Source: Escherichia coli
GTDB lineage: Bacteria; Pseudomonadota; Gammaproteobacteria; Enterobacterales; Enterobacteriaceae
Assembly: GCA_024546615.1 (NCBI GenBank)
Contig: GCA_024546615.1_5040.1
Reading direction: 5' to 3' (one strand)
Length of the DNA stretch: 47,767 nt
How positions within the stretch are numbered: position 1 is the stretch's first letter; each line of letters begins with the position of its first letter. A program made the position numbers and the translations under genes. Shown here piece after piece: positions 14,228 through 47,767 of this stretch. Below the pieces are notes generated by a model that was not told where the DNA came from, searched no databases, and saw nothing but the letters and a program-made list of their open reading frames with translations.

Positions 14228-14677
14228 TTAACTTCCGGTACTCCCAAAACCACCCTGACGGTCAGTTTTCTGTTGGGGTGGTTCATTGATTTGCTTAAAC
14301 GTCACTTGTTCGACCGGAATCAACATCCCCTGTGCAATCCGGTCACCGTGATTAACCCAGAACACACCTTCACAATGGTCAACATCCTGCGTCAACTTGA
14401 CCATCAATTCACCGGTGTAGTCACTGTCAATGACGCCGGTGCAATTTGACAGACGGACATCACTGTTAAATCCGTGACCACTGCGTGAGTAAATCATCAA
14501 AGCGTACCCAACTGGTATATCAAATTTAAGCCCTGTAGGAATGATTACGGGCTCACCGTTGCGAACTGGTACTGGTTCATCAAGTACAGCATAAATATCG
14601 AAGCACGCGCTTCCTGACGTTGCATACGTTGGAATACGTGCGCCAGGGCGTGACAGGTAAATGTTCATCTCACTCAT
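14228..14677 (-). CDS. dut: dUTP diphosphatase (dUTPase)
   Basis: Motifs SRSGHG, GVIDSDYTGE and C-terminal GGFGSTG; track ORF trimmed to MSEMNIY start with RBS GGAGAG. Confidence 0.8.
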   Translation of the reverse strand: MSEMNIYLSRPGARIPTYATSGSACFDIYAVLDEPVPVRNGEPVIIPTGLKFDIPVGYALMIYSRSGHGFNSDVRLSNCTGVIDSDYTGELMVKLTQDVDHCEGVFWVNHGDRIAQGMLIPVEQVTFKQINEPPQQKTDRQGGFGSTGS

Positions 14678-14756
14678 TTCTTCAACTCTCCAGCCGTATT
14701 GTGCGCGGTTAAGCGCGATAAATTTATCTTTCGTTGTGAATAAAACTGTTCCAGAT

Positions 14757-15155
14757 TTATGCTTTACTGCCCACATATTTAATCACCATATATCCTGGTC
14801 TGGCGGAAAGTGAGACCTTGTGTCCGTATATCCACGCGGTTTTGTATACGTATGTTAACTGTGCGGTGCGCAATTTAATGTCCGAATATGTTGCTTTAGT
14901 TCTCCAGTTCCATGTGAACTCATCGCCCGGTTTTGCTCTTTCAAGGGCGTCAAGGAGGATGATACGCTCATACGACCTTACCCCACGTGATACGCGTCTC
15001 CTGGTTTTGGGCTTCCCTCGTGCCAGACTTCGTTTATCTGGTTTTCCACTTTTTGTAATTCGTATCAGTCTCTGTGATGGCTGTGCGACATCTTGAGGGA
15101 CACTCTCTTCTGGAACAGAATTTATTTTTTTTAAAATATAAGCTGCAAATGACAT
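14757..15155 (-). CDS. Basic hypothetical protein (132 aa)
   Basis: Lys/Arg-rich; first gene downstream of promoter at 15187-15215; RBS AGAGAGG. Confidence 0.5.
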   Translation of the reverse strand: MSFAAYILKKINSVPEESVPQDVAQPSQRLIRITKSGKPDKRSLARGKPKTRRRVSRGVRSYERIILLDALERAKPGDEFTWNWRTKATYSDIKLRTAQLTYVYKTAWIYGHKVSLSARPGYMVIKYVGSKA

Positions 15156-15215: not shown

Positions 15216-15510
15216 TACCTCATTTACCCCGAAATACCCGAGGCATCGGGGTGGCGAATTTACTTTCACAATCATAGGTTTACGCGCATAACCGAAAACC
15301 ACGTACATTCTTCCCCTCTTCCCTCTTATAAACCCTATAATATATACATTATGTATTATACTACATTTATACTATATATTATATACTCTCTATTACTACT
15401 AATTACTATTTTATAAGGGTATAAGGGTAATAAGTAATAAGTAACAGAAAACTAAAGAGTTTTTTATACCCCGATGACATACCCCGAACGAGTTTCAACG
15501 GGGTATGTGG
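15211..15510. repeat. Repeat copy A (~300 bp, about 93% identical to 47502-47767 plus 1-35): hairpins, AT-rich TATA-rich core, TAAGGGTA/ATAAGTA short direct repeats
   Basis: Direct by-eye alignment of the two copies; hairpin CCCCGA-N13-TCGGGG near 15228-15252 and ATACCCCG-N12-CGGGGTAT at 15479-15506. Confidence 0.85.
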
Positions 15511-16964: not shown

Positions 16965-18101
16965 ATGTCTTTTCCAGTTGAACAAATCATCCCAATCACG
17001 ACCCGGATTTCTCCGGCGGGATTGGGTACAGCAAACTTCGCTTCCGCGATGTTGTTTGCTAAAAACTCCGAACTCCCGAGCGGTTTCACCAAAGACACGG
17101 TTCGTACCTACTATTCCACCTCTTCTCTCGCCGCTGACTTTGCCCCCACGACCGAGACGTACCAGGCCGGTGCCAAGTTCCTCGGCTCCACCCCCGCGGT
17201 ACCGAAACTTACCGTGTGGGCCACCGCTGACGATGATGCGGATATCAAAGCGACGCTGGCTAAGGCGTTCGATAAGCATTACTGGTACTGGACGCTTTTC
17301 ACCAAAGACGTGCTGGCAACAGAGGCAAACGTATTGTCGATTGCATCCTGGTGTGAAGAGAACAGTGTCATGTTCCCGAACAGCCAGACCGGTGAGGCTG
17401 TGGCTAAAATTCGCAACCCTGACGCCAGCGATGACATCTGTTCACAGCTGAACACGCTGGGCTATCGTCACGCGTTTACCGTTGCTCATGCAACCGACCC
17501 GTATGCGGCCTATGCGCTCATCAAGCATTCTGCCTCAGTCAATTACAGCGCTGATAACAGCACTATTGACACTGAGTTTAAAAAATCTCCGGGTGTTGCT
17601 GCCGAAGACCTGTCCGACACCGAACAGAATGCGATGGTCACCAAACGTTGCGCATTCTACAGCGTGCTGGACCTGCAAGGTAGCACCGACAGCGGTCGCT
17701 GGCTGCAAACGTGGTCGCACAGTACCTACGGCGAGTCTATTTCCGATATCGTCGATTTGGACGCATTTGTGAACTCTCTGCGTGTGGAACTGTACAACAC
17801 TATCGTTAACCAGACCACCAAACTTCCGCAGACTCCGGTCGGTCAGGAAGCGCTCATCGGTGCGGCTAAACGTGTCGGTAAACAGTACATCCGTAACCGT
17901 TATCTCGGTCCGCGCAAATACACCAGTCCTGACACCGGTCTGGAAGCGTACACCGATGGCTTCGAAGTGCTGACCAAAGCGACGGATATTCTCGACCTGT
18001 CCGATTCTGACCGCGCGGCGCGTAAGTCTGCACCGATTAACATGCGCGTGTTCAAAGCTGGTAGTGTCCGTATCTGTGACGTCACAGTCGACGTTTATTA
18101 A
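16965..18101 (+). CDS. Putative tail sheath-like protein
   Basis: 378 aa gene immediately before a 138-aa tube-like gene, chaperone and tape measure; assignment by gene order and size only. Confidence 0.4.
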   Translation: MSFPVEQIIPITTRISPAGLGTANFASAMLFAKNSELPSGFTKDTVRTYYSTSSLAADFAPTTETYQAGAKFLGSTPAVPKLTVWATADDDADIKATLAKAFDKHYWYWTLFTKDVLATEANVLSIASWCEENSVMFPNSQTGEAVAKIRNPDASDDICSQLNTLGYRHAFTVAHATDPYAAYALIKHSASVNYSADNSTIDTEFKKSPGVAAEDLSDTEQNAMVTKRCAFYSVLDLQGSTDSGRWLQTWSHSTYGESISDIVDLDAFVNSLRVELYNTIVNQTTKLPQTPVGQEALIGAAKRVGKQYIRNRYLGPRKYTSPDTGLEAYTDGFEVLTKATDILDLSDSDRAARKSAPINMRVFKAGSVRICDVTVDVY

Positions 18102-18114
18102 TGGAGAATGACCG

Positions 18115-18531
18115 ATGTCATTAGAAAACTTTTCCACAAGTAACACGGTCATCACAATTAATGGCCGAATCATTACTGATTTTGGCGAGTCTGACCCGCC
18201 GTACACCGACGAGCCGATTGACGCATCCACTGCATTACGCCGTGGTCTGGGTGGTAACGCTATTCGTCTGGACCGCATCAACCCGGGTCGTCGTGTCACG
18301 CTGAACCTCAACCCCGGCTCGGCTGACTCCGCGTATATCAACGGGCTGTTTCTGAGCAAGGCCAACATTGAATTGACCTATACTCAGATTGGTACACTTG
18401 ATGCCGCCGTCGGTGCGGAAGGTGTGATTGTGAACGATGGTCCGCGTGGGCGTGGTGGTCAGACGATTACCGATGACCAGTGGATTTTTGAGTTCAATTC
18501 ATGGACTGCGACAAAGGGTCCGGCAAGCTAA
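18115..18531 (+). CDS. Putative tail tube protein
   Basis: 138 aa; follows sheath-like gene; RBS GGAGA. Confidence 0.45.
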   Translation: MSLENFSTSNTVITINGRIITDFGESDPPYTDEPIDASTALRRGLGGNAIRLDRINPGRRVTLNLNPGSADSAYINGLFLSKANIELTYTQIGTLDAAVGAEGVIVNDGPRGRGGQTITDDQWIFEFNSWTATKGPAS

Positions 18532-18536
18532 ATGAA

Positions 18537-18569
18537 AGGGGCCTGATGGCCCCTTAATTATTTTCTTTT
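18537..18569. terminator. Bidirectional intrinsic terminator
   Basis: Hairpin AGGGGCC-TGAT-GGCCCCT followed by T-rich tract; sits between convergent genes. Confidence 0.6.
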
Positions 18570-18806
18570 ACTCCGAATGTGAAAGTCTGCTTTACCCATC
18601 ATATCTTTACGCCAGCAAACGCCGGTACCCATATACGCCGGGTCGTCACTTTCCGCATAACCAAATTCATTTTCATGATATGTGCAAATCGTGTCGGTCT
18701 GCCCGTCATAAATCTGGAATTGCTCACCTTGTTCAGCGTGGGCGCTGTTGCAGTAAATTGTTACAGCCATGATGACTGCTAACTGAATTTTAAATTTGTG
18801 AATCAT
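18558..18806 (-). CDS. Small secreted protein (moron candidate) with signal peptide
   Basis: MIHKFKIQLAVIMAVTIYCNSAHA then EQ...; Cys-containing mature part; own promoter and terminator; antisense to tail genes. Confidence 0.5.
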   Translation of the reverse strand: MIHKFKIQLAVIMAVTIYCNSAHAEQGEQFQIYDGQTDTICTYHENEFGYAESDDPAYMGTGVCWRKDMMGKADFHIRSKRK

Positions 18807-18836
18807 TTTGTACTCTCCTGTTGTTCTGTTGGGGTA

Positions 18837-18865
18837 ACTATAGCTCATCTTGACGAGTCCGTCAA
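18837..18865 (-). promoter_or_regulatory. Sigma70-like promoter TTGACG-17-TATAGT overlapping palindrome TTGACGAGTCCGTCAA (18850-18865)
   Basis: Spacing read directly; drives secreted moron gene. Confidence 0.55.
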
Positions 18866-18925
18866 TAATTGATTGATGATTTCGCCAAGTGTACACTGTA
18901 ACGACTAACAACCGGAGAAATAACA

Positions 18926-19300
18926 ATGTCACTTGTTAAAACTTTTACCGCAGGCGATATCACAGTGAACGCCGCGATGCCTTCCGCAATTGAGCAGGAC
19001 GAACTGCTATCCCTGGTGAGCGCACAGTTTATCGCACACGCCGCTAACGTTTACAAAAACGGTGGTGAACTCGGTGTTAAAGATGTAACGCTGTTGCTCA
19101 CCGCTGTACCGCACCATATCAAGCAACGTATTGTCGAGGTGCTCCTGAGCAAAGCGATGGTAGCGGGTACCAACACGAAAATTACAGTGAATGATTTCCC
19201 CGGTAAAATGATGACGCTGAATACTCTGCTGGCTGAATTGTTTCTGTGGATTTACGCTGATTTTTTCGATTACGTGCAAAACGCAAACAAAGACGAGTAA
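18926..19300 (+). CDS. Tail assembly chaperone (gpG/gpE-like)
   Basis: 124 aa gene between tube and tape measure; slippery heptamer near 3' end. Confidence 0.55.
   Translation: MSLVKTFTAGDITVNAAMPSAIEQDELLSLVSAQFIAHAANVYKNGGELGVKDVTLLLTAVPHHIKQRIVEVLLSKAMVAGTNTKITVNDFPGKMMTLNTLLAELFLWIYADFFDYVQNANKDE
19261..19267 (+). promoter_or_regulatory. Putative -1 programmed ribosomal frameshift slippery site T_TTT_TTC
   Basis: Heptamer in X_XXY_YYZ register of chaperone frame; -1 frame is open from 19261 to 19521. Confidence 0.45.
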
Positions 19301-19521
19301 GGGGCACCGGTCGACCCAGCCCGGTCAACTGGTACTTCATGCGGGTTTGCACGGGTATCGAAGGAGTGTGTCCACCTCTTTGTACATGGGCGCAGTTAAA
19401 AGATGGTACAATATCGCTTGCTGAAGTCGAACAATTTCACTTTGCGATGGATGAATTGCAGGGTAAGTATATTGAGGCGATAAACAATGCAAGAAATTCC
19501 CCTAAACAACGGCGCGGCTAA
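19261..19521 (+). CDS. Frameshift extension of tail assembly chaperone (gpGT/E+E'-like product)
   Basis: -1 frame open for 86 codons from the slippery site; contains track ORF 19339-19521. Confidence 0.4.
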   Translation, partial: FFRLRAKRKQRRVRGTGRPSPVNWYFMRVCTGIEGVCPPLCTWAQLKDGTISLAEVEQFHFAMDELQGKYIEAINNARNSPKQRRG

Positions 19522-19783
19522 CGCCCATCAGACCTTCACGGTCAAGCTGGGCGACAACGTTCTCGACTTTGCGCTGGATTACATCAGCTATACCGACAAG
19601 CCCGCGTGGACAATGACTGTTTCACAGGATGGTATCAACTACATCACCGGTGCAATGCTTGTTCCAAACGCTGAGGTCAGCAAAGCATACCGCGCCGGAC
19701 TGGGTCGCTTCTTCTTTGTGGGCGATGAGGTAACCATCGACAACCTCGGCGTTGATAACCATCTTCTGTGGGTGCCTGAATAA
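19487..19783 (+). CDS. Hypothetical protein (98 aa)
   Basis: ORF between chaperone extension and tape measure; stop overlaps tape measure start. Confidence 0.4.
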   Translation: MQEIPLNNGAANAHQTFTVKLGDNVLDFALDYISYTDKPAWTMTVSQDGINYITGAMLVPNAEVSKAYRAGLGRFFFVGDEVTIDNLGVDNHLLWVPE

Positions 19784-21120
19784 TGGCTAATGTGATTACG
19801 CAGTTTCTGGTCGGTCTCGGCATCTCTTACGATGGTAAAGGTGCTGAACAGGCTGAAAAAGATATCGACAACCTCGGCAAATCGGCGGAGCAAGCCGGTA
19901 GTCGGATGGACGATGTTGGCAAGTCCCTCGACCAGGGTGTTAAAACTGGTGTAGAAAATTCAAAATCGCGCATCATGAGTCTGGTTGCCACATTTAAAGG
20001 TGCCGGACTTGCTATGTCCGGTGTTGCCGCAGGTGTCGGCGCAGCGTGGGCGTTTGAGTCGAAGAAAGCACAACAGGCTTACGACCTGAACAACCAGCTT
20101 GCAACCAGTCAGTTCGGACCGACTGAGGTTTACGGACTTGGCGCACTGGCTGAACAGCGTGGCGGCGACCGGCAAGCAACGACAAACAGTCTTTTAAATA
20201 TCGAGCGTGGAATTAACCGCATTCAGACCGGTGACGCCGGGATGATTCAGCAACTGGCGGTTGCAGGAATTCGTGTTGATAACCCCACAGGGCGTACACG
20301 CGAGGGTATTTACAGTGACATCGCCGGGCAGTTCCAGCGCCTCGATACGACACGTCAGAGCAACGTAGCGGATATTTTAGGTCTCGACCCGGCTACCGTC
20401 AGAGTATGGCAGGAGTTCGGCGCTACAACGCTGGAAGTGTCAAAAGCCCGCGCCGCTGAACTGGGTTACACCGAGAAGCATAATGCGGCACTGGATGCAA
20501 TCAATCAGACCATAATTGACACTCAACAGAAAATGGAAGGACTGGGTAACACTATTGCAGATGTTCTCGCACCCAGCATCAAAACCTTGTCCGACAGTTT
20601 CCTGTCTGCTGCCACTGGTTTTACAAACTGGCTGAAAGCACACCCCGATTTACCGACAGATATCATAAGTGGCAACTGGTACGATAAGTATATTGTTGGT
20701 AGTGCCAATGATACGGCAGAGTGGATCAAGGAGAAAACAGGCTTCGACACTCGGAACATTGGGAGGTCTTTTAGCGCTGAGAATAATCCACCAAAACCAG
20801 ATTACGACTATACCCGGAAGCCGGAAGATAAACCGTATCAATCATTCGTGTGGCAGCAACCAGCGAAAGATAAAAGTATAACCAACGACGGTTCGTATGG
20901 CGCTGAAGCGAGTCCGATGACCGATAACTACGCTCAGCAAAGTCGGCAGATGAGTCAGATTATGGAATCCATAAACCGTCCGATTCAGCTTAACGGCAAT
21001 TTCACCACACAGGGTGACGTGATACTGGACGGTAACGCAATTGGCCGCTACACCGTGAATCATCTCGAGACACAGGTGTATCCACAGGCGATTGACCAGA
21101 CCCGGCAAAGGAGTTATTGA
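19783..21120 (+). CDS. Tail tape measure protein (short, 445 aa)
   Basis: Position after chaperone pair; helical Ala/Gln-rich sequence with hydrophobic segment. Confidence 0.5.
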   Translation: MANVITQFLVGLGISYDGKGAEQAEKDIDNLGKSAEQAGSRMDDVGKSLDQGVKTGVENSKSRIMSLVATFKGAGLAMSGVAAGVGAAWAFESKKAQQAYDLNNQLATSQFGPTEVYGLGALAEQRGGDRQATTNSLLNIERGINRIQTGDAGMIQQLAVAGIRVDNPTGRTREGIYSDIAGQFQRLDTTRQSNVADILGLDPATVRVWQEFGATTLEVSKARAAELGYTEKHNAALDAINQTIIDTQQKMEGLGNTIADVLAPSIKTLSDSFLSAATGFTNWLKAHPDLPTDIISGNWYDKYIVGSANDTAEWIKEKTGFDTRNIGRSFSAENNPPKPDYDYTRKPEDKPYQSFVWQQPAKDKSITNDGSYGAEASPMTDNYAQQSRQMSQIMESINRPIQLNGNFTTQGDVILDGNAIGRYTVNHLETQVYPQAIDQTRQRSY

Positions 21121-21122
21121 CA

Positions 21123-22547
21123 ATGGATTTGCGCCAGTATGAAATACTCATTGATACAAAGAATTTCATTACACAGTCGTACCCGATGCTTCGGTGCTCG
21201 TTCGATGTGACAACGTATACCGGTGACAGCCTGAGTACCTGTGAGTTTCGCTTGTGGAACCTTGCGCCCACAACGAAGATTGAACCGAATCAGACCGTTG
21301 TTTTTCGCGCCGGGTATCAGTCGCGCATCGGTCAGATTTTTACCGGGTTTGTCACCAACGTTTTCACCATTCGTGACGGTACTGACATCATCACCCGTGT
21401 GACGTGTCGCAGCGGCAGTAACGTGCTCGACGGTGGGACAACGAGTGCGAGTTTCGGTAAGAGCGTGACATTATTTGACGTCTTGACCAGTCTCGCACAG
21501 GACTGGTCGAAACCGTTATATCTTGTCAATAGTGTGGACAAATTTACCTCCATTGTCATGGCTGGGGGCTATAACGTCAGCTCCGATATCAGTAAGGAAC
21601 TTGACATTCTGGCCAAAGCATACGGCTTCGAATGGCATCTGTACGCCGGACAGGTGTTCGTCGGATTTCCATCTGATGAACGTAAAGCCACGCCCATCAA
21701 AATCAGTTCCGCCACCGGGATGATTGACGCACCCACGCTTCACGGCGGCATTGATGGCGTATTCTGTGACGTTAAAATGCGTCTTGACCCCCGTATGACA
21801 CCCGCATCAGTGCTTAATATTGAATCTAAATGGCCTAAATTCGATTTCGGCGCGGTAGAATTCCAGTCAACCGTTGACGCTAAACTGGAAGGTGACTGGA
21901 ACGTTCAGACCATTCAACATACCGGCGACACACACGGTCCCGACTGGTACACGTTTGTCAAAGCTGTGCGCGCCGGGTCAATGGATACCACCACGACAAA
22001 TACTGATGTTGGTAATCGCCTCATTTACGGTCGTGTTGGCGTGCAGGGTGAGGACGCCAGTCAGCAGCAGGATTTCCGTACCGAGGTGCGTAAACTTGGG
22101 CAAAGTCTGGGTATCAGTCCAAACTGGATCATGGCTGTAATCTCTGCGGAGTCTAACTTCAATCCGCAATCAAAGAACAGTAAATCTGGCGCAGTGGGTC
22201 TGATTCAGTTTACTAATGCTGGTTGGACGAGTGCGTTTCAGAGTAAGTATGGTCGTAATAAAAATATCATACTGTCAATGACTGCAGCCGAACAGGTCAG
22301 AGGTCCTATTACTGATTATCTCAATCAGTACAAAGGGCGTTACAAAACGATGGGCGATGTGTACATGGCTGTATTTAGTCCGGCATTCATCGGTAAACCT
22401 TCCACTACCGTGATGTACACGTCACCGTCCAGAGCGTACAATCAGAACGCAGGGCTTGACACGGACCATAAAGGTTACATTACCGTCGGTGACGTGTGGC
22501 GGCGTGTTGAGGAACGATTCAGACAAGGTAAGGCGTACATGTTATGA
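21123..22547 (+). CDS. Tail protein with C-terminal lytic transglycosylase (SLT) domain
   Basis: C-terminal AVISAESNFNPQS...GAVGLIQF motif; RBS AAAGGAG; track ORF starts at TTG 21117. Confidence 0.6.
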   Translation: MDLRQYEILIDTKNFITQSYPMLRCSFDVTTYTGDSLSTCEFRLWNLAPTTKIEPNQTVVFRAGYQSRIGQIFTGFVTNVFTIRDGTDIITRVTCRSGSNVLDGGTTSASFGKSVTLFDVLTSLAQDWSKPLYLVNSVDKFTSIVMAGGYNVSSDISKELDILAKAYGFEWHLYAGQVFVGFPSDERKATPIKISSATGMIDAPTLHGGIDGVFCDVKMRLDPRMTPASVLNIESKWPKFDFGAVEFQSTVDAKLEGDWNVQTIQHTGDTHGPDWYTFVKAVRAGSMDTTTTNTDVGNRLIYGRVGVQGEDASQQQDFRTEVRKLGQSLGISPNWIMAVISAESNFNPQSKNSKSGAVGLIQFTNAGWTSAFQSKYGRNKNIILSMTAAEQVRGPITDYLNQYKGRYKTMGDVYMAVFSPAFIGKPSTTVMYTSPSRAYNQNAGLDTDHKGYITVGDVWRRVEERFRQGKAYML

Positions 22548-23745: not shown

Positions 23746-23796
23746 TTGACGTGAGTGTCAATAGTATACTTGACATTATTTTCACAGGAGGGCGAC

Positions 23797-29782: not shown

Positions 29783-30167
29783 ATGCTCAGGGTCGGTTGT
29801 TACATCAGCCGACTTAACCTCGTTTTTATAAACCATCCACGCTGACAGCTTAGCTTTGTTGGCGTCGCTGATTTCACCCAGCATCAACTCTGTCCGCCAG
29901 TCTCTGACTATGATAACTGGGACGGTAGTCAGTGGGTAACAGACTCAGATGTCCAGCATGTTGCAGCCGTCACAGTCGCTGAACTGTACGCACAGCACCT
30001 CATTGATACAGCAATGCAGTCCGTTAGCGTCATTCAGCTAAAGCTACAAGCTGGCAGACGCGGAAAAGACGAAACTGAATAATGTTCTGGATTACATCGA
30101 TGCGGTGAATACTGTAGACAAGTCCAGCGCACCAGACATCACCTGGCCGACCCCCGCCAGTAATTAA
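29783..30167 (+). pseudogene. Decayed second tail-fibre-assembly gene (in-frame TGA at 29843-29845 plus frameshift near 30042-30082)
   Basis: Frame A encodes ...DYDNWDGSQWV...AELYAQHLIDTAMQSV...; frame B ends ...KLNNVLDYIDAVNTVDKSSAPDITWPTPASN with Tfa signature. Confidence 0.55.
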
Positions 30168-30427
30168 CGAAAAACCTGACATCCTTTCCACCACTGTTGC
30201 CACCGGGACACCCTGTCCCGGTCGTACATTAACACCTTCCCGTTATCACGCATGACATCGGCTGCAATGTTTGGATCACCACCCGTGGTTTTCAGTTCCC
30301 CACTCACTGTCATTAAATCATTCGCCGGGGGTGGACACAGTTGCGTCGTAGACGTCGAGCAACCCACTGTTACGCACACACTCAGCAATACCAGGGTCTT
30401 TGATACGGTCGCGATAAACTGTGACAT
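30164..30427 (-). CDS. o-spanin (Rz1-like outer-membrane lipoprotein), overlapping i-spanin gene in another frame
   Basis: MSQFIATVSKTLVLLSVCVTVGCS signal/lipobox-like then CPPPAN proline-rich region; starts inside i-spanin gene and extends beyond it. Confidence 0.5.
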   Translation of the reverse strand: MSQFIATVSKTLVLLSVCVTVGCSTSTTQLCPPPANDLMTVSGELKTTGGDPNIAADVMRDNGKVLMYDRDRVSRWQQWWKGCQVFR

Positions 30428-30656
30428 ATTTAACAACCTCTTTATCTCGTAATTCATTGCGCTCCCGCTGTGCTTCCAGCAGTGCTATATCTTTGTCGTT
30501 CAGTTCAGTCTGGAGGTTGTCACGCTTTTTGACGAGGGTTTTATACTCTTCAAAGTCATCCAGCTTGACCGCATTTTTACCCGAAAAATAACCCATAGCA
30601 TACACTGCAACCATTATGCTACCGATTACCCCGGCGAGTATCACGTTGCGCATCAT
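30318..30656 (-). CDS. i-spanin (Rz-like)
   Basis: N-terminal TM (VILAGVIGSIMVAVYAMG) then charged coiled-coil region; ATGA overlap with endolysin stop. Confidence 0.55.
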   Translation of the reverse strand: MMRNVILAGVIGSIMVAVYAMGYFSGKNAVKLDDFEEYKTLVKKRDNLQTELNDKDIALLEAQRERNELRDKEVVKYVTVYRDRIKDPGIAECVRNSGLLDVYDATVSTPGE

Positions 30657-31216
30657 TTCTCCCCCAGTGTATACAGGCACAAATACTCCTCCTGTTCCCG
30701 GCGAATTGGCTGTCCGGAACAGTTGTTACTTTTAATGCGGCAGTCTTTACCGCCATCGAATACCCAACGTGGGATCTGTTTGCACGCATTCTTCCAGTCG
30801 CCTTTTTGCAGCAACTTAAAGAATGTTGACCCCTTACATTTGGTAGGTCCGATATTGTATGGACAGAACGATGCGATGCCGACCTGTTGCACCGGGTTCA
30901 GTTTTACCGGAATATTCTCACGTACCCACTGTAACGACTTCTGTGCTTCTTTATCGTTCAGAAGGTCACACTGCTTTTCGGTAAGTCGCATACCCTTTGT
31001 CACCGGCTTACCATCGATGCGCGTCACACCCCGGCAGATGGTCCAGATACCTCTACCGTCCTGGTACGCAGTGGTGCGATTACCTTCTTTCTCGTTCAGA
31101 AATTGATTAAACAGGTCCGTTTGTGTGACCACTCCGCCCCCTAATGCAAATACTGCGAGGAGTGCCGTCATTTGCTTACTTAAAGGATTTTTCATTTTGT
31201 TACACTCGTTGTACAA
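30653..31216 (-). CDS. Endolysin, T4-lysozyme-like glycoside hydrolase with N-terminal SAR-like hydrophobic segment
   Basis: EGNRTTAYQDGRGIWTICRGVT catalytic-region motif; N-terminal MTALLAVFALGGGVV; true start may be ATG 31195. Confidence 0.75.
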   Translation of the reverse strand: MYNECNKMKNPLSKQMTALLAVFALGGGVVTQTDLFNQFLNEKEGNRTTAYQDGRGIWTICRGVTRIDGKPVTKGMRLTEKQCDLLNDKEAQKSLQWVRENIPVKLNPVQQVGIASFCPYNIGPTKCKGSTFFKLLQKGDWKNACKQIPRWVFDGGKDCRIKSNNCSGQPIRREQEEYLCLYTLGEK

Positions 31217-32346: not shown

Positions 32347-32375
32347 ACTCTAAACTACTTTGACGCACTCGTCAA
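32347..32375 (-). promoter_or_regulatory. Sigma70-like promoter TTGACG-17-TAGAGT overlapping palindrome TTGACGCACTCGTCAA (32360-32375), embedded in 3' end of upstream gene
   Basis: Spacing read directly. Confidence 0.5.
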
Positions 32376-32948
32376 CGGTAAAACTAACTTTTCTGCTTCC
32401 TGAATGTACCAGTCGTAATTCAGTGCTCCCCAGTCGAAGTCTTTAGCGTCGGCACACTCTGTCACCTTCCATCCTGCACACATACTTGTTTCGCGCACTG
32501 CATCGTGCTTACTGCGACTCTTCGTGTGGATACGCTCGTCCCACGGTGTACCAATGCTGTCGAGGTCGCCCGGTTGACCTGTAATCTCACGCATTACCGC
32601 ATTGTACACATCGTCCTTGACACCATTCTTACGCTTCCATGTACCTGGTGTACCAGTGGGCGGTAACAGCTTGACCAGTGACCCACCGTTACGCGAGATA
32701 AATACACGTGTGGTATTCTGCATCTCCTGTTCAGCGCCCCACTCAGGCCAACGCATCACCAGACGTGCCGAACGAGGTACTTTGGCGCGCAGCATGAAGT
32801 CGAACGGGTCACGGTGCTGCGTGATGAACGTGCGGATGTCAGTGTCAAACAGAAGTGCGGCTTCAGCGGCGCGGGCAACAATCATCGCCGATGGGTCTTG
32901 ATGCCACTGGTATTTGTACTCGTAACACCCTTTTCTTTTAATTTTCAC
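32355..32948 (-). CDS. Hypothetical protein (197 aa) sharing GTPWDERIH motif with 37785-38834
   Basis: Motif DSIGTPWDERIHTKS versus DSTGTPWDERIHSTS in the 349-aa protein. Confidence 0.45.
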   Translation of the reverse strand: MKIKRKGCYEYKYQWHQDPSAMIVARAAEAALLFDTDIRTFITQHRDPFDFMLRAKVPRSARLVMRWPEWGAEQEMQNTTRVFISRNGGSLVKLLPPTGTPGTWKRKNGVKDDVYNAVMREITGQPGDLDSIGTPWDERIHTKSRSKHDAVRETSMCAGWKVTECADAKDFDWGALNYDWYIQEAEKLVLPLTSASK

Positions 32949-33828
32949 GGGTTGCCTCCAGCATTTCTAAAATTCGATTGTCCCATTTCAACCATTCGGT
33001 ACAACCATCAAAACCAGATAGTCCAGCATTAACGAAAGAAGAATGAGTTAGTTTTTCGATAAATTCCATTTTTCCACCTATGCCAGATAAAACTCGGAGT
33101 AACTGAAAATCAAATGGCGTACTTCTTTTCAATTTCCTCAAGCGATATTTATAATTATTGCTGATACCGACCTTCATATATTCCCCACCTTTGGAAGCAA
33201 GTACATAAAGGGAAGCCATCTGGTTACGTTTAAATCCACTCTTAGAACAGTCTTGACATCCTTGTCCACCGGATACGTGATCTATAGCCAATTTTTCAAA
33301 ACTACCGTGAACAGGGCAAATTATCTTTATTTTATGATGATTACCTTTATATTGAGATTCCGAATAATCATACTTATCCCCATGTACTGCGCGGGCTTTC
33401 TCAATCCATTCTTCGGTGTTATAAAGAGGAAGTCGTCCTTTTCCAGGACCTCCTGCGCATTTCGCGCACCCGTGGCCTTTTAGATGATTGCCGGCTAATT
33501 GGAGGAATTCCCCATGCTCTCGACAAATGATTATTATTTCTGAATGTCGTTTTTTATACTTAACCTTCGAATAATCATACTTATCTCCATGTACTGCACG
33601 GGCTTTCTCAATCCATTCTTCAGTGCTGGATTTTTTTGTCCCACCACAAACTGGGCAGCCGGAACCAGAACAGTGAGACGTGGGTTCTTGTCGGAAATCT
33701 CCATGCAATCGACAAACAATGGTCACTTTATGTTTTGAAGTACGATACTCGACCTTCGAATAATCATACTTATCTCCGTGTACCGCACGGGCTTTCTCAA
33801 TCCATTCTTCTGTGTTCAATCTTCTCAT
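32938..33828 (-). CDS. Homing-endonuclease-like protein: three tandem zinc-ribbon modules plus C-terminal T5orf172 (GIY-YIG-like) domain
   Basis: Three repeats of EEWIEKARAVHGDKYDYS...; C-terminal YVLASKGGEYMKVGISNNYKYRLRKL...GCTEWLKW; contains three ~55-bp DNA direct repeats. Confidence 0.6.
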   Translation of the reverse strand: MRRLNTEEWIEKARAVHGDKYDYSKVEYRTSKHKVTIVCRLHGDFRQEPTSHCSGSGCPVCGGTKKSSTEEWIEKARAVHGDKYDYSKVKYKKRHSEIIIICREHGEFLQLAGNHLKGHGCAKCAGGPGKGRLPLYNTEEWIEKARAVHGDKYDYSESQYKGNHHKIKIICPVHGSFEKLAIDHVSGGQGCQDCSKSGFKRNQMASLYVLASKGGEYMKVGISNNYKYRLRKLKRSTPFDFQLLRVLSGIGGKMEFIEKLTHSSFVNAGLSGFDGCTEWLKWDNRILEMLEATREN

Positions 33829-39298: not shown

Positions 39299-40957
39299 GT
39301 GGGAGATGTGATGCAACTGCGCCCATATCAGTCCAGTCTTGTGACTGGGATCAATAATTATTGGTCAACAAACCCACGGGGTAAAGTGCTGGCGGTGCTT
39401 GCGACAGGTGGTGGGAAGACTGTTATTTTCTCATCTATTATCGCTGCCGAACAAGGTGCGACATGTGCCATTGCACACCGCCAGGAACTCGTCAGTCAGA
39501 TGAGTCTCACGCTTGCCAAAAACGGTATCTATCACCGCATTGTCGGTTCGAATAAAACCGTGAAAAACTGTGTGAAGATTCACATGGATGAATTAGGTAA
39601 GACATTTTACGACGCTGGAAGTAAACACGCGGTCGCCAGTGTGGACACAATCATCCGGCGTGGCGAGCAACTTGCCAACTGGTTACCGTCTGTTCGTCTG
39701 TGGGTTATCGATGAGGCACACCATGTACTTAAAGATAACAAATGGGGCAAAGCCGTGCAGATGTTCCCCAATGCTCGCGGGCTGGGGGTTACAGCTACAC
39801 CGTGTCGTGCGGATGGTAACGGTCTGGGAAGTCATGCAGATGGCGTGTTTGATACTATGTTCGAAGGCGTGGCAATGGGGGAACTCATACGAGATGGGTA
39901 TCTGACCGATTACAAAATTTTCGCACCTCCCAGTAGTTTCTCACGTGAACAAATTAAGGTGAGCGAGTCCACGGGGGATTTCAACCTGAACCAGATGAGG
40001 GAGGTCGTTAACGGCTCATCACTGGTGACACACGATGAGAAAACCATCACCGGTGATGTTGTTGCTCAATATCTGAAAATTGCCCGTGGTAAATCCGGCG
40101 TGACATTCACTGTCGACGTGGCGAGCGCTGAGGAAATCGCGGAACAGTATAATAAAGCAGGTGTCCCGGCAGCGGCAATAAGCTGTAACACTCCTGACCT
40201 TGAACGATTCGCAGCGGTGCGAAAATTTAAAAATAAAGAGATATTACAATTAGTTAACTCCGAGATTCTGACCGAGGGCTTCGATTGTCCCGGCATTGAG
40301 GTTGTTTCATTCGGTCGTCCAACCGAATCGTACAGTATGTATAGTCAAATGTTTGGCCGCGCCCTCAGACCATTACCAGGTAAAACCCACGCAATTATTA
40401 TTGACCATGTGGGTAACGTCATGCGCCACGGTTTACCGGATGCACCGCGTGAGTGGAGTCTTGACCGTCGGGAGCGTCGCACGGGTAAAAGTGAACCATC
40501 TACGGTGCGTGTGTGTACAGCTTGCGCGGCAGTGTATGAGCGGTTCCGTGACGCGTGTCCTGACTGTGGCGAACCTGTGCCAAAACCGGCGCAACGTAGT
40601 GGTCCCGAATTCGTAGACGGTGACCTGTACGAGCTTGACCCGGACGTACTGGCGCAGATGCGTAACGAGGTTGTGGGAGCACGTGAGACACCCGAGGCAA
40701 TGCGTGACAGACTGACTGGTCGCTACATGCCACAAGCTGGTGTCATAAGTGAGGTACGAAAACAAATAAAACGTCTTGACGCGCTCGTCAAACTGGACCA
40801 TACTCTTGCTCAGTGGGCCGGTTATCGCCGTGCGGAAGGTCTGAGCGACAGCGAAATATTTCGTAAATTTTACCTGACGTATGGTGTGTCATGGCTGGAG
40901 GCGCAGGCGCTCAAAGCGGCTGATGCGGATAAATTACGGGAGAGGATTGGATTGTGA
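39299..40957 (+). CDS. SF2 DEAD/DEAH-box helicase
   Basis: Walker A LATGGGKT, motif II VIDEAHH; RBS GGGAGA. Confidence 0.75.
   Translation: MGDVMQLRPYQSSLVTGINNYWSTNPRGKVLAVLATGGGKTVIFSSIIAAEQGATCAIAHRQELVSQMSLTLAKNGIYHRIVGSNKTVKNCVKIHMDELGKTFYDAGSKHAVASVDTIIRRGEQLANWLPSVRLWVIDEAHHVLKDNKWGKAVQMFPNARGLGVTATPCRADGNGLGSHADGVFDTMFEGVAMGELIRDGYLTDYKIFAPPSSFSREQIKVSESTGDFNLNQMREVVNGSSLVTHDEKTITGDVVAQYLKIARGKSGVTFTVDVASAEEIAEQYNKAGVPAAAISCNTPDLERFAAVRKFKNKEILQLVNSEILTEGFDCPGIEVVSFGRPTESYSMYSQMFGRALRPLPGKTHAIIIDHVGNVMRHGLPDAPREWSLDRRERRTGKSEPSTVRVCTACAAVYERFRDACPDCGEPVPKPAQRSGPEFVDGDLYELDPDVLAQMRNEVVGARETPEAMRDRLTGRYMPQAGVISEVRKQIKRLDALVKLDHTLAQWAGYRRAEGLSDSEIFRKFYLTYGVSWLEAQALKAADADKLRERIGL
40776..40804 (+). 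promoter_or_regulatory. Internal promoter TTGACG-17-CATACT with palindrome TTGACGCGCTCGTCAA inside helicase 3' coding region
   Basis: Spacing read directly. Confidence 0.4.
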
Positions 40958-41631: not shown

Positions 41632-41660
41632 TTGACCACTCCGTCAACCTGTGCCATACT
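41632..41660 (+). promoter_or_regulatory. Sigma70-like promoter TTGACC-17-CATACT overlapping palindrome TTGACCACTCCGTCAA (41632-41647)
   Basis: Spacing read directly. Confidence 0.5.
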
Positions 41661-41689
41661 GCAACAAATCACCTAATGGAACCGAATTT

Positions 41690-41968
41690 ATGAGCAAAGA
41701 ATACATTTTAGAAGTAGCTTACACAATGGCGCAGCGCGACGGCTTTGGCACTCTTACCCGCGACGGCGTTGCGGCTGAGGCTGGCGTGGCGATGGGTTCA
41801 GTTAACCATCACTGGGTCAGGATGTCCGCACTTCGTGAAGCAGTGATGCAACGGGCAGTGGAAGAAGAAAACCTCGAATTGATTGGACAGGGAATGGCGC
41901 TGGGTGATAGCGTTGCCAAATCCGCACCACTGGAGCTACGCACCCGCGCACTGACCACCCTGCTTTAA
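41690..41968 (+). CDS. Small HTH protein, TetR-like N-terminal fold (candidate transcriptional regulator)
   Basis: TLTRDGVAAEAGVAMGSVNHHW resembles TetR-family HTH; track ORF trimmed to MSKEY start. Confidence 0.45.
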   Translation: MSKEYILEVAYTMAQRDGFGTLTRDGVAAEAGVAMGSVNHHWVRMSALREAVMQRAVEEENLELIGQGMALGDSVAKSAPLELRTRALTTLL

Positions 41969-44348: not shown

Positions 44349-44370
44349 GCCCTTCGGGGCTTTTTTTTTT
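44347..44370 (+). terminator. Intrinsic terminator GCCC-TTCG-GGGC plus T10
   Basis: Read directly. Confidence 0.75.
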
Positions 44371-44380
44371 GCAATTAGTA

Positions 44381-44409
44381 TTGACGGACTCGTCAATAGG
44401 GCGTATATT
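44381..44409 (+). promoter_or_regulatory. Near-consensus sigma70 promoter TTGACG-17-TATATT with palindrome TTGACGGACTCGTCAA (44381-44396)
   Basis: Read directly; preceded by conserved GCAATTAGT. Confidence 0.65.
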
Positions 44410-44458
44410 TAATCACATGAAAGGCGGAACTGTTCCACCCCACGGGGAGAATAAGAAA

Positions 44459-44590: not shown

Positions 44591-44616
44591 CAGCCCCTGA
44601 ATGGGGCTTTTTTTTT
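44591..44616 (+). terminator. Intrinsic terminator AGCCCC-TGAAT-GGGGCT plus T9
   Basis: Read directly. Confidence 0.75.
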
Positions 44617-44626
44617 GCAATTAGTG

Positions 44627-44655
44627 TTGACGAGTCCGTCAAGGTAGGTTATCTT
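44627..44655 (+). promoter_or_regulatory. Sigma70-like promoter TTGACG-17-TATCTT with palindrome TTGACGAGTCCGTCAA (44627-44642)
   Basis: Read directly; same GCAATTAGT upstream context as 44381. Confidence 0.6.
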
Positions 44656-44689
44656 TAACTCATCGGAACAACAACAGAGAGGAATACAA

Positions 44690-45059: not shown

Positions 45060-45262
45060 GTTACTGCCAGTTGATGGAGCGCTGTTTGGCAGCTGAGGCG
45101 CGGGTGGTGGAACTGGAGAAATATAAAGCTGCATTTATAACGTGGCAAGACAAAACAGAATGGGTGCAGAAGGATTCACGCTTTGATATTTTGTTACCCT
45201 GGGGCAAGCATCGAGCGGACGTACTGAAAGAGTACATTGAATTGCTGGAGCGTAAACCATGA
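45041..45262 (+). CDS. Hypothetical protein (73 aa)
   Basis: Overlapping start/stop arrangement in operon. Confidence 0.4.
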   Translation: MDMETLSYCQLMERCLAAEARVVELEKYKAAFITWQDKTEWVQKDSRFDILLPWGKHRADVLKEYIELLERKP

Positions 45263-45555
45263 TTAAATATTTACCACTTGTAGCGCTCCTGGTGGGCGCT
45301 CAGGCTCACGCGGGTGTGATTGCAGTGAGTGATGAAGCACAGGTCGCTAACATGCTCTTTAACGGATGCAGCGCTCAACGTGCACAAATGGGCGTGCAGG
45401 AAATTATTAAACAGGCTAACCCGGGCGATAATCCTGCGGTGACTGACCTTATCATTAAAGGTTACAAGTTCGGCATTGATTACCCGAATGTCGGATGCAA
45501 CCAGTTCTTTACAGTTGTTATCGACCAGTTAGTTAACGCCAGGAGCAAAGCGTAA
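45259..45555 (+). CDS. Secreted/periplasmic protein with signal peptide (98 aa)
   Basis: MIKYLPLVALLVGAQAHA then GVIAV...; two Cys. Confidence 0.5.
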   Translation: MIKYLPLVALLVGAQAHAGVIAVSDEAQVANMLFNGCSAQRAQMGVQEIIKQANPGDNPAVTDLIIKGYKFGIDYPNVGCNQFFTVVIDQLVNARSKA

Positions 45556-47506: not shown

Positions 47507-47767
47507 TACCTCATTTTACCCCGAAATACCCGAGGCATCGGGGTAGCGAATTTACTTTCACAATCAGCAGCTTACGCGCATAACCGAAAACCCCGTACAT
47601 TCCTCCCCTCTTCCCTCTTATAAACCCTATAATATATACATTATGTATTATACTACATTTATACTATATATTATATACTCTCTATTACTACTAATTACTA
47701 TTTATTAGGGGTATAGGGGTAATAAGTAGTATAGTACTGAAAGGTAAAGAGTTTTTTATACCCCGAT
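47502..47767. repeat. Repeat copy B (continues into 1-35), about 93% identical to 15211-15510
   Basis: Direct alignment by eye; same hairpins and AT-rich core as copy A. Confidence 0.85.

Follow-up and report, generated by a model that had tools for sequence, protein, structure and literature searches.

A small gene transcribed against the tail genes on either side of it raises the question of what such a unit does there and where it came from. The gene (18558-18806, minus strand) lies in contig GCA_024546615.1_5040.1, which carries the GenBank label Escherichia coli; the whole stretch of 47,767 bp, hereafter the window, is a complete genome of a Jedunavirus-type myophage. An initial annotation had read the locus as an autonomous moron, that is, an 82 residue signal-peptide-bearing product with its own TTGACG-17-TATAGT promoter and palindrome and a bidirectional terminator, set between tail tube and chaperone genes of the opposite orientation. 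All of these parts are present where that annotation had placed them, but the moron label stands only for the layout. On balance we favor a different explanation, in which the unit is an early, exported accessory cassette with a competitive role at the level of the cell envelope.

The small gene and its coding signals

The coding sequence runs on the minus strand from an ATG at 18806 to a TAA at 18558-18560 and encodes 82 amino acids (aa), MIHKFKIQLAVIMAVTIYCNSAHA followed by EQGEQFQIYDGQTDTICTYHENEFGYAESDDPAYMGTGVCWRKDMMGKADFHIRSKRK; it appears in the open reading frame (ORF) list, matches the protein family phrog_31975 and is held by 67 phage records. A Shine-Dalgarno sequence read from the DNA, AGGAGAG (18813-18819, minus strand), lies 6 nucleotides (nt) before the ATG. 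Across the 58 mature codons of nine homologous genes, variable sites number 23, 17 and 47 at codon positions 1, 2 and 3 of the minus-strand frame, and NG86 ratios of non-synonymous to synonymous substitution (dN/dS) range between 0.04 and 0.15 for most pairs, reaching 0.42 for the closest pairs. This pattern of substitution marks the small gene as real, conserved and under purifying selection. By the same codon-position and dN/dS pattern, a plus-strand ORF (18579-18782) and the opposite-strand call of the PEAT2 annotators are ruled out as artefacts of an open antisense frame. A longer GTG-initiated ORF (18558-18932, 124 aa) is also rejected, because it would overlap the promoter and because the conserved start is the ATG with its ribosome-binding site.

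A tail-gene slot with exchangeable cargo

The slot that holds the gene is bounded by a convergent tail tube gene (18115-18531, plus strand; a 138 aa virion structural protein, phrog_280, annotated 'tail tube protein' in phage SBP) and a divergent tail assembly chaperone gene (18926-19300, plus strand; 124 aa, phrog_9141, named after the annotation of SBP and other relatives). In all 67 records the small gene occupies this tube-chaperone slot. Tube and chaperone genes are adjacent in no relative inspected; each has a reverse-strand cassette of 1 to 4 genes between them, in varied combinations of Ant/Rha-like, DUF551, HslV-like and small ORFs. The minimal cassette, consisting of the small gene alone, occurs in the window and in phage RCIP0093. 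Phage MEW1 has four other genes in the slot and lacks the small gene, which is therefore dispensable. The small-gene unit is a routine accessory cassette, common across the genus, and no one-off insertion.

Phage JD001 encodes a longer, two-domain form of the protein (see below), and its alignment with phages carrying the short form reveals a mosaic. Nucleotide identity is 88-91% in the promoter and 5' untranslated region and 91-93% in the leader, then drops from the cleavage site on to ~60% (40% at the amino acid level) in the mature DNA, which also has an added domain; the terminator hairpin is kept, and the flanking tube and chaperone genes are 85-96% identical. The single mapped breakpoint, that of JD001, lies at the leader/mature junction. 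By this identity pattern the slot acts as a frame of conserved promoter, leader and terminator into which different cargo can be placed, and we read it as a hotspot of recombination.

Promoter, palindrome and shared terminator

The minus-strand promoter TTGACG-N17-TATAGT (18837-18865) has its -35 element at 18865-18860 and its -10 element at 18842-18837. A 16 bp operator-like palindrome, TTGACG-AGTC-CGTCAA (18850-18865), overlies the -35 and extends 10 nt into the spacer. The hexamers alone prove nothing, since promoter-like sites occur in the region at the rate expected by chance: a generic sigma-70 scan scored the small-gene promoter 10/12 and found 14 sites in total where 14.0 were expected. 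The promoter stands above chance because it matches perfectly a 29 nt composite motif (TTGACG-N4-CGTCA-N8-TAnAnT) that occurs 15 times at up to 2 mismatches, against 0.17 expected (0/100 shuffles). These matches collapse to about 11 distinct oriented sites, of which six are perfect, the one at 18865-18837 (minus) among them. The palindrome (TTGACG-N4-CGTCAA) is similarly enriched in the window, with 16 sites at up to 2 mismatches against 3.0 +/- 1.9 expected (0/100 shuffles), and MEW1 is equally enriched for the motif (12 sites at up to 1 mismatch, 0.22 expected).

Among relatives of the small-gene locus the palindrome arms and the -10 are conserved and the 4 nt center varies, the pattern expected of an operator for a dimeric protein. 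A box of the FNR/CRP type was considered for the palindrome and differs from it in half-site spacing (TTGA-N8-TCAA here). Divergent promoters are annotated in the homologous intergenic region of the KpV79 GenBank record, and a CAACA(A)CAG(A/G)GAG(G)-type leader (CAACA(A)CAGAGAGG) with a ribosome-binding site recurs behind several of the palindrome promoters.

Palindrome promoters head five reverse-strand islets of the structural module (5418, 7411, 8490, 15215 and 18865, all minus), and a sixth islet has a more degenerate copy at 23761 (minus) with the -10 sequence AATTAT. In the replication region they occur at 32375, 36471 and 38897 (minus) and at 40776, 41632, 44381 and 44627 (plus), and the class is also found upstream of genes of the helicase/primase region. 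One of the structural-module islets (14228-15155, minus), behind the perfect palindrome promoter 15215-15187, contains a dUTPase gene (PF00692) and a 132 aa ORF without family. Because the promoter class is shared with the dUTPase islet and replication genes, the small gene is most likely expressed early; it probably belongs to an early or at least non-late regulon, temporally apart from the late tail genes that face it. A 105 aa protein with a TetR_N helix-turn-helix domain (41651-41968, plus), encoded directly behind the palindrome at 41632-41647, is a candidate autoregulated binder of the 16 bp palindromes.

Between the promoter and the chaperone gene, the 60 nt at 18866-18925 are near-invariant in five relatives, in surrounding coding DNA that is ~90% identical. 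This segment contains a weak TTGATT-17-TACACT match (18869-18897) and is present in a single copy in the genome.

At its other end the unit stops at a hairpin, AAGGGGCC-TGAT-GGCCCCTT (18536-18555), common to the convergent tube gene (plus) and the small gene (minus); it lies 2 nt past the small-gene stop codon and 4 nt past that of the tube gene. RNA folding gives -18.7 and -19.2 kcal/mol on the two strands (z -2.4 and -2.9), and T-rich tails lie on both sides (18556-18571 on the plus strand and the complement of 18528-18535 on the minus strand). The hairpin passed the terminator scan on the plus strand. The minus-strand tail, UUUCAUUU, directly follows the G+C stem, and this hairpin fails the T-run rule of the scan if two flanking A-T pairs are counted as stem. 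In the GenBank entries for KpV52 and KpV79 a rho-independent terminator is marked at the cassette end beside the tube gene, in the orientation of the cassette. The reading as a shared terminator of bidirectional type is supported. Its stem (GGGGCC/GGCCCC) is conserved and its loop (18544-18547) differs, being TGAT here, ATCA in RCIP0093 and AATT in JD001; such loop differences on a kept stem suggest inversion or replacement of the hairpin loop. The RCIP0093 loop is the reverse complement of TGAT.

Export signal and mature protein

Codons 1-24 (18735-18806, minus) encode a predicted Sec-type signal peptide, with n-region MIHKFK, h-region IQLAVIMAVTIY and c-region CNSAHA, and predicted cleavage between AHA and EQ at 24/25. 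It has the features of a Sec leader cut by signal peptidase I (SPase I): a positive n-region, a hydrophobic core within the 10-16 residues expected (12 uncharged hydrophobic residues, with a best Kyte-Doolittle window of 2.47 by our own calculation) and small residues at -3 and -1 (A-H-A before E). The same leader architecture is present in every homolog, and within the genus indels (8 codons, 4 codons) fall only inside the leader. The mature domain recurs in homologs behind at least five unrelated leaders; those of distant homologs include MKLITSLLILLSVGANA, MRNKSLIIISLFITCNAIA, MKLFLATTLLSISFFSHA, MKKSIAVIALGLFSLSASA and MKEYLRLFSAIAFLSMSAVSHA.

A lipoprotein (SPase II) reading of the leader was rejected. 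There is no lipobox ([LVI][ASTVI][GAS]C), the sequence being T-I-Y-C with Y at -1, and the leader Cys is Ser in homolog P0040 and absent from P0043, P0047, P0049 and P0055; because it is missing in P0040, it is not a lipobox Cys.

The mature domain (18561-18734, minus) has 58 aa, 6.8 kDa and an isoelectric point (pI) of 4.9, and consists of an acidic beta-core (pI of the body 4.05) and a basic C-terminal helix (pI of the tail 11.07). Mature-chain columns D10, C17, S29, G36, G38, C40, W41 and A49 are invariant. With unrelated leaders on one mature domain and two invariant Cys, export and a periplasmic disulfide, predicted as C17-C40, are well supported by the sequence comparisons.

Family, fold and distant relatives

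Homology and structure prediction, by which the initial annotation had proposed to check its reading, went part of the way, yielding a family and a usable model of the mature domain but no relative of known fold or function. The protein matches phrog_31975 over its full length (E 3.4e-53, residues 1-82 against profile positions 9-90 of 90), a family with no annotated function whose named members in the 90% cluster are all 'hypothetical protein'. Neither short nor long forms matched Pfam, NCBIfam, PADLOC or PDB sequences, and the window protein and four homologs had no match in PADLOC-DB at E<=1. An AlphaFold2 model of the mature domain, built from a diverse alignment, reached a predicted local distance difference test score (pLDDT) of 84.7, with strands at 5-10, 15-21 and 27-29 and a helix at 43-57; the full-length model (pLDDT 53) was unusable. 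No fold was assignable with Foldseek against BFVD (best E 0.3).

Only 12 proteins came out of an exhaustive profile search covering 1.8 billion representatives, and they form three groups: the short form; a two-domain form (P0047, P0049) with an extra C-terminal Cys-containing domain; and SpaA-type repeat proteins sharing only a hairpin motif. A later alignment search added two further two-domain forms, gp07 of JD001/BUCT_47333 (186 aa, P0054) and P0055, and tblastn found another on a Yersinia ruckeri plasmid.

Outside phages the family appears in mobile-element contexts, as rare two-domain homologs on plasmids of Yersinia and enterobacteria. One homolog lies on a plasmid-like contig between parAB and an ArdA/PsiB/PsiA leading region, and that of Y. 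ruckeri lies on the conjugative plasmid pWKY. P0055 is encoded on a conjugative-plasmid-like contig of Yersinia kristensenii, with genes for the abortive-infection toxin ToxN, DUF3800 and HigBA nearby; this long form lies 20 nt downstream of the ToxN gene, co-oriented with it and upstream of DUF3800 (L017 6901-7874, L018 79-1040). The ToxN-P0055 pair could be a co-transcribed defence-island arrangement.

The multi-repeat proteins entered the profile search (E 1.5e-7 to 6e-4) because the core F-x-I-Y-D...T-D...G-Y-A matches the first beta-hairpin of SpaA/prealbumin-like repeats (PF17802). Their scores, however, are summed over 5-7 repeats of a short motif, 58 aa is too short for the full beta-sandwich, the small-protein model has three strands and a helix, and there is no Pfam SpaA match and no fold match. 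Membership in the SpaA/Cna-B type is therefore rejected in favor of a motif-level resemblance summed over repeats.

The window encodes a second small secreted protein with two conserved Cys (45259-45555, plus; leader MIKYLPLVALLVGAQAHA/G), downstream of the promoters at 44381 and 44627 and belonging to phrog_27564, which has no known function. It was considered as a detached C-terminal domain of the long form and rejected (hhalign E 0.39 and 0.26, probability <1%).

Proposed function and alternatives

In the explanation we favor, the small gene would form, with transcription signals of its own, a compact accessory cassette of a lytic Jedunavirus-type myophage, running antisense to the tail tube and tail chaperone genes on either side. 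Transcription would start at a host sigma-70-type promoter, of the class repeated about 11 times in the genome, whose -35 is half of the 16 bp palindrome, probably an operator with the small TetR-type protein (41651-41968) as candidate binder. The unit would most likely be early, out of phase with the surrounding late tail genes, and would stop at the hairpin shared with the tube gene. Its 82 aa product would pass through the Sec pathway and be cut after AHA, leaving a 58 aa acidic periplasmic protein built of a three-stranded beta-core and a C-terminal helix of basic character, with a conserved acidic loop held in place by a C17-C40 disulfide (C41-C64 in precursor numbering). This protein would act in the envelope of the infected cell against competitors (superinfection exclusion or related protection), by binding a target in the periplasm or in a membrane.

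Exclusion at the envelope is our best guess: an envelope-level competitive function best fits a small exported disulfide protein that is a widespread accessory, is probably early, undergoes allele swapping and has plasmid relatives. Supporting context comes from the mobile-element and defence surroundings of the distant homologs (parAB/ArdA/PsiB, ToxN/DUF3800/HigBA, pWKY), among which the homolog beside ToxN is the one hint of such a function. The nearest precedents in function are T4 Spackle (PMC7677548) and T5 Llp (PMC9586334), although the small protein belongs to neither family. This conclusion must be tempered by several points that weigh against it. The SLT domain of the tail stays 91-96% identical among phages that have the short form, have the long form (40% identical to it) or lack the gene, so there is no sign of coevolution with this candidate target, and the type of small protein co-varied neither with that domain nor with the tape measure. 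The early timing is drawn solely from a shared promoter motif, and the palindrome could have another role, for example as a recombination site or a bidirectional -35.

Foremost among the alternatives, though unlikely, is a role in counter-defence or host takeover, in which the protein neutralizes a host periplasmic or envelope factor that limits the phage's own infection; candidate targets are an envelope-stress sensor, a periplasmic protease or a periplasmic anti-phage effector that blocks DNA entry. The probable early-class promoter would suit this role, as would the presence/absence and allele swapping among close relatives, the typical behavior of genes involved in host range or arms races. 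Defences that act in the periplasm against DNA entry do exist, the HXS system (PMC13128918) among them. The short mature form, however, is under strong purifying selection, with little diversification among about 60 phages isolated on different capsule types, and the plasmid homologs lie beside defence genes and outside anti-defence islands, except for the homolog at the ArdA/Psi leading region, which would fit anti-defence.

We consider it distinctly unlikely that the protein is a Spackle-like inhibitor that blocks the SLT domain of the baseplate hub (21117-22547) of superinfecting relatives, so that their tails fail to cross the peptidoglycan. T4 Spackle (gp61.3) is an early, exported protein of ~75 aa in its mature form, with one disulfide, that acts in superinfection exclusion (PMC7677548, PMC7650644). 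The likeness is that of a lytic-myophage gene with a cleavable export signal (predicted here) encoding a small periplasmic protein (75 vs 58 aa) with one disulfide, and the small protein is acidic (pI 4.9), like Spackle, which binds a basic patch of the gp5 lysozyme (PMC7677548). A beta-sheet with a disulfide-anchored loop also resembles inhibitors of the Ivy/PliC type, in general design only (PMC7677548). The phage carries an SLT domain on its tail (PF01464, E 2e-8; residues ~300-476 of the hub ORF), and the lytic transglycosylase homolog of MMNM/MEW1 (MEW1_19) was detected in purified virions (PMC8269216). Yet Spackle is an all-helical bundle and the small protein a predicted beta-hairpin core with one helix; no homology or fold similarity to Spackle was found, nor any sequence or fold similarity to Ivy, MliC/PliC, PliG or PliI. 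MEW1 keeps its SLT domain without the small gene, and the near-constancy of that domain across short-form, long-form and gene-less phages, given above, argues indirectly against the inhibitor. The receptor-blocking lipoprotein Llp of T5 (PMC9586334) differs in being anchored in the outer membrane; the small protein has no lipobox, a predicted signal peptidase I cleavage and no homology to it.

Lysis timing is very improbable as a function. The protein would on this account regulate lysis from the periplasm, through the holin, the endolysin or the spanins, in the manner of the T4 antiholin RI, a small periplasmic protein whose leader is cleaved (PMC8385771). The phage encodes an endolysin of SAR-like type together with spanins, both acting in the periplasm (30164-31216). 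The small gene, however, is 11 kb from this lysis cassette, MEW1 has the same endolysin/spanin set without the small gene, and the plasmid homologs have no lysis context.

The classical moron, a recently acquired foreign gene autonomously expressed for the benefit of a lysogen, is now largely refuted and scarcely probable. Morons are independent promoter-gene-terminator units in lambdoid late operons, a concept reportedly due to Juhala and Hendrix. At the level of sequence the likeness is clear: a single small gene on the opposite strand with its own sigma-70-type promoter, ribosome-binding site and intrinsic terminator in the tail region, an exported, non-structural and probably envelope-directed product, and protein relatives on plasmids. 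The layout and the small exported product of the initial reading survive. Extra DNA, prophage expression and a private promoter, as a moron would have them, do not hold. The gene is near-universal in the genus and present in 67 records, and no examined relative has an empty slot with tube and chaperone adjacent. The promoter is of the phage's own standard class, which also heads the dUTPase islet and replication genes. The small gene belongs to a lytic phage of Jedunavirus type. No domain of integrase or repressor type turned up in the large window ORFs scanned or in the fully annotated MEW1/MMNM, and the genus is described as lytic in the titles of papers on it. The classical moron logic, which has the gene expressed from a prophage, therefore does not hold here.

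The last alternative, that there is no functional protein gene here but a chance ORF or a regulatory antisense RNA with irrelevant coding capacity, could appeal to the short ORF, the open antisense frame and the strand chosen by the PEAT2 annotators, but is already refuted by the substitution pattern (the low dN/dS and the third-position excess in the minus-strand frame), along with the strong ribosome-binding site and a mature domain kept at 57-64% identity behind a different leader (P0043) and at ~40% in plasmid proteins.

The early exported accessory cassette that we favor has a structural parallel in the PeSL cassettes of the hyperplastic regions of T4-type phages (Arbiol et al. 2010, PMC2839356; Comeau et al. 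2014, PMC4122927), in which repeated early sigma-70-like promoter motifs and stem-loop terminators flank small non-essential ORFs (PMC2839356, PMC4122927) and which have been linked to gene shuffling (PMC2839356). Jedunavirus-type phages likewise have a repeated conserved promoter motif, stem-loop terminators and small ORFs that vary among close relatives, and the window contains terminator-promoter composites at 44357-44412 and 44603-44658. The phage lineage is different, a 16 bp palindrome overlaps the -35 here, and the mosaic boundary in JD001 lies at the signal-peptide/mature junction, away from the promoter; for the Jedunavirus-type phages the likeness is one of sequence. Each of the two composites fuses a terminator hairpin and T-run to a palindrome promoter (GGGGCTTTTTTTTT-GCAATTAGT-TTGACG...), and the copies are 246 nt apart (repeat family D6).

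A bolder proposal, which we hold tentatively and think doubtful as a whole, is that phrog_31975 and the two-domain forms may constitute an unrecognized class of periplasmic exclusion factors with an orphan disulfide fold, common to Klebsiella/E. coli lytic phages and conjugative plasmids and deployed from a conserved 'export cassette' of promoter, leader and terminator, in which recombination at the signal-peptide junction exchanges the mature-domain cargo. The palindromic promoters of the phage would in that case make up an early regulon that its mini-TetR protein shuts off. Among the Jedunavirus papers in the library searched, none treats the small gene, and no transcriptome was found.

Host phage and neighboring features

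In the 1.3 kb region around the gene, the window is 90-94% identical at the nucleotide level to Klebsiella phages SBP, KpTRp1, KpV52 and JD001-group phages, and equally so to Escherichia phages ZCEC13 and CWW26. A lytic-type Jedunavirus genome from an E. coli isolate could be explained by a carrier state, by contamination or by a member that infects Escherichia, as with ZCEC13. The neighbors of the small gene form a contractile-tail module: a sheath gene (16965-18101, DUF3383 by domain scan) precedes the tube gene, and beyond the chaperone follow a Pam3_gp18-like plug (19487-19783), the tape measure (19783-21120) and the hub with its SLT transglycosylase domain discussed above.

Further repeats were observed. 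A direct repeat of ~290 nt, 92% identical, occurs at 15223-15510 and at 47515-47767 continuing into 1-35, and contains an AT-rich TATA-like tract and the hairpin GACATACCCCGAACGAGTTTyAACGGGGTATGT; the neck-gene operon (15560) and the small terminase gene (83) are located downstream of this repeat, which could be a late-operon regulatory region. Three 79 nt direct repeats (33349-33823), 80-89% identical and spaced 189-207 nt apart, lie inside a minus-strand ORF (32938-33828) that is a putative homing-endonuclease gene of the T5orf172/MUG113 type, implying an internally repeated protein segment.

Implications

The novelty of the locus is modest, being that of an uncharacterized orphan-fold protein in a known kind of phage accessory unit; current understanding is not overturned, and a previously unannotated gene is filled in. 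Jedunaviruses are nonetheless widely isolated for Klebsiella phage therapy, and if the small protein alters the envelope of the infected cell, the result may be mutual exclusion of phages, with consequences for cocktail design and host-range behavior. The tube-chaperone slot, which tolerates 0.25-1.3 kb of exchangeable cargo behind promoter, leader and terminator, is a natural engineering site. The palindromic promoters, together with the phage's TetR-like protein, offer a directly testable model of an early-to-late switch for the genus.

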